From a virus (lineage: Duplodnaviria > Heunggongvirae > Uroviricota > Caudoviricetes): a stretch of DNA of 64,000 nt. Positions 23,153 to 24,638 of the stretch are shown in pieces (within the stretch, counting starts at the first letter, position 1; every line of letters begins with the position of its first letter). The position numbers and the translations under genes were made by a program. Location: the IMG/VR virus record IMGVR_UViG_3300020048_000080; one strand, given 5' to 3'. Below the pieces are notes generated by a model. It saw only the letters and a list, made by a program, of their open reading frames with translations. It was not told where the DNA came from and did no database searches.

Positions 23153-23451
23153 TAACTAAATTTAAAATATATGAATCTATAAATGAAGGTGAGCCTATGG
23201 CTGGTGATTATGTTATTTGTAAACCAAAAAATCGGGGAACCGCATTTCAAAAATATGTTGACGATAATATTGGGAGAATTATGAAGGAATTTAAAGATGA
23301 TACTTATTTTAATGGAAAAAATATAAAAAATTTTTTGGTGAAATTTACAAATCCAACAACTTATGTTTTTAATAGAGATCAGATTCTATATTGGTCTAAA
23401 AATAAAGAAGATATGAAAGATATACAACAAGCAAATAAATATAACTTATGA
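23149..23451 (+). CDS. KYNL-family small protein (MITKFKIYE..., AGDYVIC, YWSKNKEDM, ANKYNL)
   Basis: Family motifs; ATGA overlaps on both sides. Confidence 0.5.
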   Translation: MITKFKIYESINEGEPMAGDYVICKPKNRGTAFQKYVDDNIGRIMKEFKDDTYFNGKNIKNFLVKFTNPTTYVFNRDQILYWSKNKEDMKDIQQANKYNL

Positions 23452-24638
23452 TTACAAAATTTAAAATATTTGAAAATTTATCAATGAAGATTGATTTACC
23501 TGATGATATTTATCAAATCAAAAAAGAATTTGATAAAGCAGGTAAAAAACTTTACGTTGTTGGTGGTGCGGTTAGAGACTTTTATCAGAAAAGAAAACCA
23601 CATGATATTGATTTAGTCACAGATGCTTTACCAGAAGAATCAAAGAAAATATTAAAAGGTAAATTTAATGTATCAGATGAGCAAGGTAAAAGTTTTGGAG
23701 TATTAAGAATATTTACAGAATCAGAACCTGCTGGTTATGAACTTGCAACATTTAGAAAAGATATATCAAAAGGTAGAGATACAAAAGGTGATGCACCAAA
23801 AGTTGAAATCGGAAAACATATCACTATTGAAGATGATGTTAATAGACGTGATTTAACACAAAATGCACTTTTTTATGATATTGATAAAGAAGAAATTGTA
23901 GATTTAGTTGGTGGCATCGAAGACATAGAAAAAAATGTAATCTCAGCCGTTGGGGAGGCTTCAGAGAGATTTATAGAAGATAGGTTGAGAATCTTACGAG
24001 TCTTTAGGTTCGCATCAAGAAGCCTATCTAAAATAAGTGATGCGACAATTGATGCAATCAAGAAAGATAAGAGATTAAGAAATATTTCAAAAATTGATGA
24101 TGTTTCTCAAGAAAGAATAGTTGAAGAATTTGAAAAAGCAGTTGATTGGTCATCTGAACATAAGAAAATTGAATCATTACATTTTTATTTAGAATTACTT
24201 GAACAATATGAAATGTTTAGTGAGATGTTTCCTGGTTTACATATTAATACACATAATATTAATACTTATAACTTACCAATTATATATGCACTTTTATTTA
24301 GAGATAATAATATTGAAAAATTAAGAAGTAAATTAAGAAAATATAAATTTTCAAATAAAACTGCTGATACTGCTTGTTTCTTATTAAGATTAAGAGATTA
24401 CTTATTAGATTTAGATAAAATTCCCGCATTATATAAAGAAAAAGTTAGATTTCATGTTGATAATGAAACTATTGAAGAATTTGCTGATTTATATGACTTG
24501 AATGATAAATATATAAATGCATTCTTAAAATATAAACCAAAAATAAATGCAAAAGAATTTATGTCAGGATTAAAAGATATTGAGATTGGTATGGAAAAGA
24601 AAAGAAGAGAAATAGAAGAATTTAAGAAATTATTATGA
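23448..24638 (+). CDS. tRNA nucleotidyltransferase/poly(A) polymerase family protein (CCA-adding enzyme-like) carrying the family leader MITKFKIFENL
   Basis: Head-domain motif 'LYVVGGAVRDFY...HDIDLVTDALP' (GGxxRD...DxD) from the PolyA_pol / CCA family. The first 11 residues are identical to the array leader. Confidence 0.6.
   Translation: MITKFKIFENLSMKIDLPDDIYQIKKEFDKAGKKLYVVGGAVRDFYQKRKPHDIDLVTDALPEESKKILKGKFNVSDEQGKSFGVLRIFTESEPAGYELATFRKDISKGRDTKGDAPKVEIGKHITIEDDVNRRDLTQNALFYDIDKEEIVDLVGGIEDIEKNVISAVGEASERFIEDRLRILRVFRFASRSLSKISDATIDAIKKDKRLRNISKIDDVSQERIVEEFEKAVDWSSEHKKIESLHFYLELLEQYEMFSEMFPGLHINTHNINTYNLPIIYALLFRDNNIEKLRSKLRKYKFSNKTADTACFLLRLRDYLLDLDKIPALYKEKVRFHVDNETIEEFADLYDLNDKYINAFLKYKPKINAKEFMSGLKDIEIGMEKKRREIEEFKKLL

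Follow-up and report, generated by a model that had tools for sequence, protein, structure and literature searches.

In bacteriophage T4, the capsid targeting sequence (CTS) comprises 10-19 N-terminal residues; a protein fused to it is packaged, and the prohead protease gp21 removes the CTS (PMC8442874). By mutational mapping, residues 4 and 7 serve targeting, residues 8 and 10 serve processing, and gp21 cleaves after L/I-x-E (PMC9026906). The internal proteins of T-even phages form a diverse, injected anti-defence set whose sole common part is the CTS (PMC3012670); those of T4 start MKTYQEFIAE|A (IPII and IPIII) or MKTFKEFTS..ITE|A (IPI). Here we describe a gene from IMG/VR record IMGVR_UViG_3300020048_000080, a virus of the Caudoviricetes, of which 64,000 nucleotides were analysed (hereafter, the window). 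The gene, at 23448-24638 on the + strand, encodes a tRNA nucleotidyltransferase whose first residues belong to a leader borne by many unrelated phage proteins, and this leader may act as a T4-like capsid-targeting propeptide.

In phiKZ, 201phi2-1 and SPN3US, propeptides of head and ejection proteins have been proposed to direct these proteins into the prohead, a gp21-related protease cuts after Glu, and dozens of packaged proteins enter the host (PMC5694885). Those propeptides mostly exceed 100 residues, have S/A/G-x-E sites and share no short consensus, whereas the tag described here is uniform, T4-like and about 10 residues long. CCA-adding enzymes have also been noted in jumbo and huge phages (PMC7824862, PMC7162821), where they share family, motifs and fold with the present enzyme and likewise occur alongside phage tRNA genes and an RNA ligase, and the enzyme itself is ordinary for huge phages. 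Other phage and cellular CCA enzymes, however, align with it only from about residue 14-34 and lack the N-terminal leader, which has no counterpart in its PDB or PHROG homologues.

The closest records to the window are the "huge phage" genomes LR745206 (634 kb) and LR756502 (642 kb), both members of the Mahaphage clade, whose hosts are predicted to be Bacteroidetes (PMC7162821); 19 of the 108 window genes have LR745206 homologues. Nearer relatives, with CCA enzyme identities of 50-81%, are metagenomic contigs of up to 531 kb, the largest of which (L005) is syntenic with the window, and IMG/VR holds seven related loci only, on contigs of at most 122 kb. We accordingly place the enzyme in a huge phage of ~0.5 Mb that is a relative of the Mahaphage clade.

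A class II tRNA nucleotidyltransferase and its start codon

The open reading frame (ORF) at 23448-24638 encodes 396 amino acids and begins MITKFKIFENLSM (in a longer stretch, MITKFKIFENLSMKIDLPDD). Pfam PF01743 (PolyA_pol head) matches residues 35-165 with E = 9e-31 and 107 bits against a gathering cut-off of 23, and PHROG 2244 (tRNA nucleotidyltransferase) matches with E = 5e-50 from residue 32 onward. All motifs of a class II nucleotidyltransferase (NTase) are there: motif A is GGAVRD at 39-44 with D53 and D55, motif B is RRD at 133-135 and motif D is EDRLR at 177-181, and G39, G40, R43, D44, D53, D55, R133, R134, D135, E177, D178 and R181 are invariant among 77 orthologues. An AlphaFold2 (AF2) model built from the alignment of these orthologues reached a predicted local distance difference test score (pLDDT) of 91 and a predicted template-modelling score of 0.87, with residues 1-7 below a pLDDT of 50. 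The top five whole-chain Foldseek matches were all to the Planococcus CCA-adding enzyme (E = 6e-17, template-modelling (TM) score 0.64-0.75, with 0.69-0.75 for the best CCA-adding matches) and covered the full head-neck-body-tail fold. Lower scores were obtained for E. coli poly(A) polymerase (TM 0.52-0.62), and the A-adding enzyme of Aquifex gave 0.49-0.68. A PDB sequence search also placed the Planococcus enzyme first (2.6e-25), ahead of E. coli poly(A) polymerase (3.6e-23). Scores stayed below both NCBIfam equivalog cut-offs (154.5 bits against 290 for PRK13299, CCA; 149.3 against 305.65 for pcnB), and the NCBIfam and PDB sequence searches did not separate a CCA-adding enzyme from a poly(A) polymerase.

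The product is a complete class II tRNA nucleotidyltransferase. The first-pass annotation of this stretch had named the tRNA nucleotidyltransferase/poly(A) polymerase family, which the motifs and the fold, closest to CCA-adding enzymes, bear out; the hidden Markov model classification that it proposed placed the protein in the NTase superfamily and ranked the CCA model first, but CCA addition and poly(A) synthesis were not told apart by sequence. Taken together, the motifs, the fold ranking, the phage tRNAs and the jumbo-phage precedent indicate a class II enzyme that is probably CCA-adding. In the window, each of the five tRNA-Leu genes ends without the 3' CCA, which gives such an enzyme substrates within the phage itself; an Rfam scan of the window returned tRNAs only. 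The phage's own tRNAs are the expected substrates, and damaged host tRNAs may possibly be others. The annotation had further seen RNA and translation repair as a recurring theme and suggested a counter to host nucleases. The tRNAs, the RNA ligase (50566-51573) and the PrfH-like RF-1-domain gene (48536-48946) on which this theme rested are all present in the window; a defence-related role of the enzyme is conjecture, and a simpler one exists in the maturation of the phage's own CCA-less tRNAs.

Variants of the leader open nearly all (>100) of the 120 best CCA homologues, among them MITKFKIFEKNIP.., MITKFTQFITEKNIP.., MKFIKKYKYFLLEN.., MIKKFKDFLLEN.. and MRIKKYIDFISES..; the few that lack it are perhaps miscalled starts or truncated contigs. 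The leader is also kept by the distant orthologues of LR745206 (MILKKYKMFLES, 42-43% identity) and LR756502 (MIITKYAKFLES, 34%), where unrelated neighbouring genes are leader-bearing as well. If the true start were Met13 (23484) and the in-frame codons upstream of it were untranslated, the leader would be an annotation artefact. A start at Met13 would lie 25 residues ahead of GGAVRD, the usual spacing in cellular CCA enzymes, and every PDB match begins at or beyond residue 14. Most orthologues, however, have no Met at this position (..EKNIPIKIDLP..), and their leader is nevertheless open, in frame and conserved, which requires translation from the leader onward; it is also at 23448 that the gene is joined by ATGA to its upstream neighbour. 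We therefore rejected the Met13 start, and an artefact of this kind appears very improbable.

A portable N-terminal motif under peptide-level selection

The enzyme gene is the fourth of eight in a run (22512-26071) in which every junction is an ATGA overlap (Table 1). The other seven are small genes whose products terminate in ..KYNL (MYNL in the first). The three upstream of the enzyme start MIT[EK]F[KF].[FY], the first of them with a degenerate leader and a TTG start that was called independently in contig L003, and the four downstream start MKY[LI]K[TL]FE. The enzyme has residues 1-9 only in common with this KYNL family; it lacks the P..GDY[VI] core and ends ..FKKLL. Pfam and PHROG searches gave no family match for the KYNL small proteins, and an AF2 model of one reached a pLDDT of 67. 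Between the window, L005 and another related contig, L022, array content varies while the junction sequences remain similar; array gene content thus turns over between relatives.

Translated in all six frames, the window contains MIT.FKI[FY]E at four gene starts and nowhere else, and the first 27 nucleotides of the genes at 23149 and 23448 differ at three positions, two of which are synonymous. Because the motif is confined to gene starts and the DNA differences are mostly synonymous, the shared N-terminus is not due to chance or low complexity. Chance similarity, which the first-pass annotation had itself named beforehand as the result that would count against it, is hence rejected, and its observation that the enzyme shares its N-terminus with its neighbours stands: the first nine residues match MITEFKIFE (22811) and MITKFKIYE (23149). 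Its picture of an enzyme fused to an array leader and embedded in the KYNL array was accurate insofar as the leader is common to the ATGA-overlapped neighbours, but the wording misleads, since the leader is found genome-wide. The CCA orthologues of contig L023 and of LR745206 keep it with no KYNL array nearby, and ~15% of genes carry it.

Leader frequencies were obtained from our own simple ORF calls and regular expressions. A strict form of the motif was found at 16 of 108 N-termini in the window, against 2.1% of internal Met positions and 3.6 ± 1.8 in shuffled sequences, and at 143 of 931 N-termini in LR745206, against 1.6% and 27 ± 5, respectively. A canonical form was found in LR745206 at 108 of 931 N-termini compared with 4 of 3098 internal Met positions. 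Leader-bearing proteins thus make up about 12-15% of predicted proteins in the window and LR745206. BLAST sorts the 143 LR745206 proteins, which are spread round the whole genome, into 130 families, and most carriers are small, acidic ORFans accompanied by a few enzymes acting on nucleotides or RNA. Only ~10 of the 78 canonical LR745206 carriers of at least 140 residues have any Pfam domain; the annotated carriers are the CCA enzyme, NUDIX, peptidase M15, RNase T-like, DHH, 2H/Acb1-like and Toprim proteins and a few others. Pfam gave no match for the other leader-bearing proteins of the window. The T4-like core proteins (terminase, sheath, tube, portal, capsid protein and protease) have no leader.

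In each of the 19 orthologue pairs shared by the window and LR745206, either both members have the leader or both lack it. Leaders use synonymous codons in the same way as the rest of the genome, and their substitutions stay within a residue class (Y/H/F/W at position 3, L/I/V at position 4 and F/Y at position 7), which together indicate selection on the peptide rather than on the DNA; conservation at the nucleotide level was rejected on the same codon data. In both AF2 models the leader is disordered (residues 1-7 of the enzyme and the leader of array gene 3, pLDDT <50). These data identify the leader as a portable N-terminal motif on which selection acts at the level of the peptide, and the first 9-12 residues are no part of the enzyme proper. 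A signal peptide was considered and rejected, as the leader has no hydrophobic core. Literature searches for leader peptides, and for the CTS in metagenomic phages, returned no earlier description of the motif.

Proposed capsid targeting and competing explanations

The leader resembles the T4 CTS in being N-terminal, ~10 residues long and Lys-rich at its start, with a hydrophobic or aromatic pair at i/i+3 followed by [I/L/V]-x-Glu. In the orthologue leader MITKFTQFITE, F5-x-x-F8-I9-x-E11 reproduces the T4 pattern with a shift of one residue; in the enzyme of the window the pair is F5-x-x-F8 and the I-x-E site is I7-F8-E9, and the MKYLKTFE type has L4 and F7. Among 109 CCA orthologues with an N-terminal extension, 94 have an aromatic-x-x-aromatic pair and then Glu, and in 84 of these 94 an I, L or V stands two positions ahead of the Glu (P3). 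Applied to T4 as a positive control, this regular expression retrieved ipII, ipIII and gene 61.1, with 5 of 226 ORFs matched overall. The last of these, gp61.1 (NC_000866 18966-19130), is a protein of 54 amino acids with the CTS-like start MKTFKEFIKED. Like the CTS, the leader is an N-terminal peptide of ~10 residues outside the folded cargo, portable among the 130 BLAST families, and its carriers are otherwise unrelated and fast-evolving, some of them in tandem loci. A diverse set of T-even internal proteins that share only the CTS follows the same logic as a variable small-gene array with a common leader.

The related, complete genome LR745206 has head genes of T4 type. By phmmer and Pfam it encodes homologues of the gp17 terminase (4e-50), the gp20 portal (2.7e-57) and the gp23 capsid protein (1.8e-26), together with T4-type sheath and tube proteins. 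Directly upstream of its capsid gene lies a gene for a protein of 707 amino acids (198546-200669; L011:2546-4669) whose N-domain has a weak but specific match to T4 gp21 (Pfam S77, E = 0.005, below the cut-off; BLASTP, E = 0.001), with the motifs G.F.E..V.NRN.R.Y and GE..HP in common. Its middle part consists of 11 tandem 14-residue repeats with YSEY[LIV][AS]E (..NIAYSEYIAENLDK..), followed by an acidic tail, and for the counterpart gene in phage PTm1 the annotation reads "prohead core scaffolding protein and protease". An [LIV]-x-E site recurs in each repeat, in keeping with a scaffold that is cut up by a T4-like protease, and the repeats are themselves CTS-like (YSEYIAE against T4 YQEFIAE). 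A small stand-alone paralogue made up of repeats only lies at LR745206 460435-460686.

A further correspondence comes from a small LR745206 protein (LR_93266), whose leader ends ..KKFIE|NA and whose remainder is homologous to the capsid protein's N-arm right after ..HSINE|NA; this alignment places the leader Glu at the position of the likely maturation site of the capsid protein. Homologues of the capsid N-arm (..SGMGAV.SAQP..LAGTT..) occur at LR745206 93266-93520, 291407-291880 and 554784-555284, and in one of them the leader replaces the capsid protein's N-terminal propeptide. The N-terminus of the LR745206 capsid protein aligned too poorly with T4 gp23 to place a homologous cleavage site. 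Among the matches listed (at least 120), all capsid homologues were at least 74% identical to LR745206, and none was on the 531-, 501- or 400-kb contigs with close CCA orthologues; neither these matches nor the seven IMG/VR loci tied a capsid gene to the clade of the window itself.

These similarities suggest a route in three steps. The leader would dock the new protein onto the scaffolding core of the assembling prohead; a protease like T4 gp21 would then cut after the leader Glu, leaving a predicted mature N-terminus of NLSMKIDLPDDIYQIK in this enzyme and KNIPIK... in orthologues; and the mature enzyme would stay in the capsid and enter the next host with the DNA. The first-pass annotation had conjectured a virion-targeting signal, and the match to the T4 CTS in position, length, i/i+3 pair and [I/L/V]-x-E, with T4-type head genes in a complete relative, gives this idea substance, but packaging and cleavage of leader-bearing proteins are putative, as are docking and ejection. 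We give the proposal that the leader is a T4-like capsid-targeting propeptide, and that the enzyme is packaged and injected, slightly less than an even chance.

Several observations weigh against capsid targeting. Homology of the protease to gp21 is weak and was found in the distant LR745206, where the protease is fused to a repeat scaffold, while the window contains no head module. The tag occurs on 12-15% of genes, ~100-140 carriers per genome, compared with three or four CTS proteins in T4. Carriers, which include enzymes such as the CCA-adding enzyme, are acidic (net charge per residue -0.056 against -0.014, p = 2e-10), whereas T4 internal proteins are basic, although basicity describes those proteins and not the CTS itself. 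P3 is less strict than in T4, being other than I, L or V in many type-A leaders of LR745206 (..TFE, ..FNE) and in the MKYLKTFE genes of the window, and a few CCA orthologues have no Glu (MKKFKDFQNKK). PTm1, the nearest cultured relative sampled, has no such leaders in its last 45 kb. Finally, an evident role in the cytoplasm is at hand for the enzyme, and packaging would be unnecessary for it.

The main rival to capsid targeting sees in the leader a tag for a different partner, as a degradation or timing signal read by Clp or M16 proteases, as a docking site for a chaperone or hub, or as an address for another phage-built compartment, with the enzyme remaining cytoplasmic. The modularity, peptide-level selection and disorder of the leader would suit any short linear motif, its prevalence and acidic cargo are unlike T4 internal proteins, and the two phages each have genes for ClpB-like proteins and for an M16 peptidase whose HxxEH motif is intact, to which LR745206 adds one for ClpP. 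No known Clp or M16 recognition motif was matched, however, and such a tag leaves unexplained the agreement with the residues mapped for targeting and processing in T4, the CTS-like scaffold repeats and the alignment of the leader end with the capsid ..INE|NA site. We consider it rather unlikely, while taking it seriously.

Two other explanations give the peptide itself no function, and we hold both to be improbable. The leader might be an expression cassette whose coding sequence aids initiation or early elongation in an AT-rich, Shine-Dalgarno-poor host: MK.. is a frequent start among phage genes, AAA is common as the second codon, K or R stands at position 2 in 30-37% of genes, and the array genes are translationally coupled through their ATGA overlaps. 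Yet the codon usage described above is that of the rest of the genome, class-conserving substitutions demand changes at first and second bases, highly expressed core genes (capsid protein, sheath, portal, terminase) have no leader, and its presence or absence is conserved orthologue by orthologue. Alternatively, the leader might be a by-product of recombination at KYNL|ATGA|MIT.. junctions, the enzyme gene having been inserted and having inherited a functionless junction remnant. The differing arrays with their similar junctions, and the leader-bearing methyltransferase-like gene in the L005 array, are what such exchange would produce. This account is nevertheless largely refuted by the persistence of the leader outside arrays and in CCA orthologues of no more than 34-43% identity, by leader sequences that vary while the motif stays, and by ~100 dispersed leader genes on both strands.

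Should the leader be a capsid-targeting propeptide, a tag on so much of the proteome would suggest a very large injected protein cargo. We offer a broader proposal more tentatively, as one we lean somewhat against: that Mahaphage-type phages (0.5-0.64 Mb) have expanded T4 targeting to proteome scale, with >100 addressed proteins per genome, among them the CCA-adding enzyme, NUDIX proteins, DHH and Acb1-like phosphoesterases, an M15 peptidase and numerous acidic ORFans, forming an injected take-over and counter-defence kit whose address would mimic the scaffold repeat YSEY[LI]AE. Were the leader a capsid address, candidate packaged or injected proteins of uncultivated huge phages, ~15% of genes and mostly ORFans, could be predicted from sequence, and part of the extra coding capacity of the largest phages would gain a concrete use. 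The CTS concept would reach a new scale and a new cargo, including a tRNA-repair enzyme delivered before phage gene expression, and new short tags would become available for loading proteins into large capsids. If packaging is wrong, a conserved motif on >100 unrelated proteins is still an unexplained targeting or regulatory code worth solving.

Array, dispersed leader genes and neighbouring features

The features of the window discussed here, including leader genes outside the array, are listed in Table 1.

Table 1. Positions of the enzyme gene, leader-bearing genes and tRNA genes in the window.
Feature	Coordinates	Strand	Details
Dispersed leader gene	16286..16726	-	MKTLKTFETW
Array gene 1	22512..22814	+	TTG start, MITEFFNF..., C-terminus MYNL
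Array gene 2	22811..23152	+	MITEFKIFE...KYNL
Array gene 3	23149..23451	+	MITKFKIYE...KYNL; AF2 leader pLDDT <50
Class II tRNA nucleotidyltransferase gene, probably CCA-adding type	23448..24638	+	Pfam, PHROG, AF2, Foldseek
Leader MITKFKIFE (aa 1-9)	23448..23474	+	Proposed capsid-targeting propeptide; putative cleavage after Glu9 (I-F-E)
NTase head domain (aa 35-165)	23550..23942	+	Motif A GGAVRD...DID, motif B RRD; motif D EDRLR after, aa 177-181
Array gene 5	24635..24982	+	MKYIKLFE...KYNL
Array gene 6	24979..25518	+	MKYLKTFE...KYNL
Array gene 7	25515..25799	+	MKYLKTFE...KYNL
Array gene 8, last gene of the operon	25796..26071	+	MKYLKTFE...KYNL
Two dispersed leader genes	31894..32834	-	One ending KYNL; one MIKIFEDF
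Two dispersed leader genes	34183..35280	-	MKNIKTFELF; MKLKKFNEF
Two dispersed leader genes	37214..38061	-	MKHVRKYE; MKYIKKYE...KYNL
Two leader genes	40603..41749	+	MNKIKNWSKFVFE; MKKFFNDFINE...KYNL; LR745206 orthologue of the MNKIKNWSKFVFE gene: MIKKFNQFLE
Dispersed KYNL-family gene	43077..43433	-	Leader MITRFKIFE
Five phage tRNA-Leu genes	62366..63572	+	Without encoded 3' CCA; likely enzyme substrates

The methyltransferase-like gene inside the L005 array (11817-12635) encodes 272 amino acids with the leader MNKIKYFNDFL and no KYNL end; its Pfam Methyltransf matches are weak (2e-4). Directly 3' of the last array gene of the window lies a non-coding element of ~145 nucleotides (26072-26215, +) that is richer in G+C and is kept in L022 and L005 with a mean column identity of 74% over an aligned stretch of ~240 nucleotides. 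Its predicted stems (ATGGTGA/TCACCAT and others) include three compensatory pairs, and it has no Rfam match; it may be a structured RNA of a new type or a regulatory site.

The gene at 2250-3407 (+) codes for a peptidase of family M16 (insulinase/pitrilysin type) that has kept its HLMEH zinc motif and is 44% identical to that of LR745206. Enzymes of the M16 family often remove or degrade presequences, and by analogy this peptidase could process or clear leader peptides.

The RF-1-domain (PrfH/RF-like, GGQ) frame of the window extends over 48263-48946 (+) as a single frame with one in-frame TGA (..GVANI*ISGKK..), and its orthologue in LR745206 (48061-48759, -) has two in-frame stops in similar places. 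TGA otherwise serves as the terminator of the array genes. The interrupted sequence suggests programmed readthrough, autoregulation or conditional stop-codon recoding. Between two groups of tRNA-Leu genes, a Cys/His-rich gene at 62591-63304 (+) resembles an HNH-type homing endonuclease, as judged from its sequence alone. A hybrid histidine kinase-response regulator (PAS, HisKA, HATPase_c and Response_reg domains) at 18826-20316 (+) adjoins a thymidine kinase gene and is kept in the 531-kb relative.

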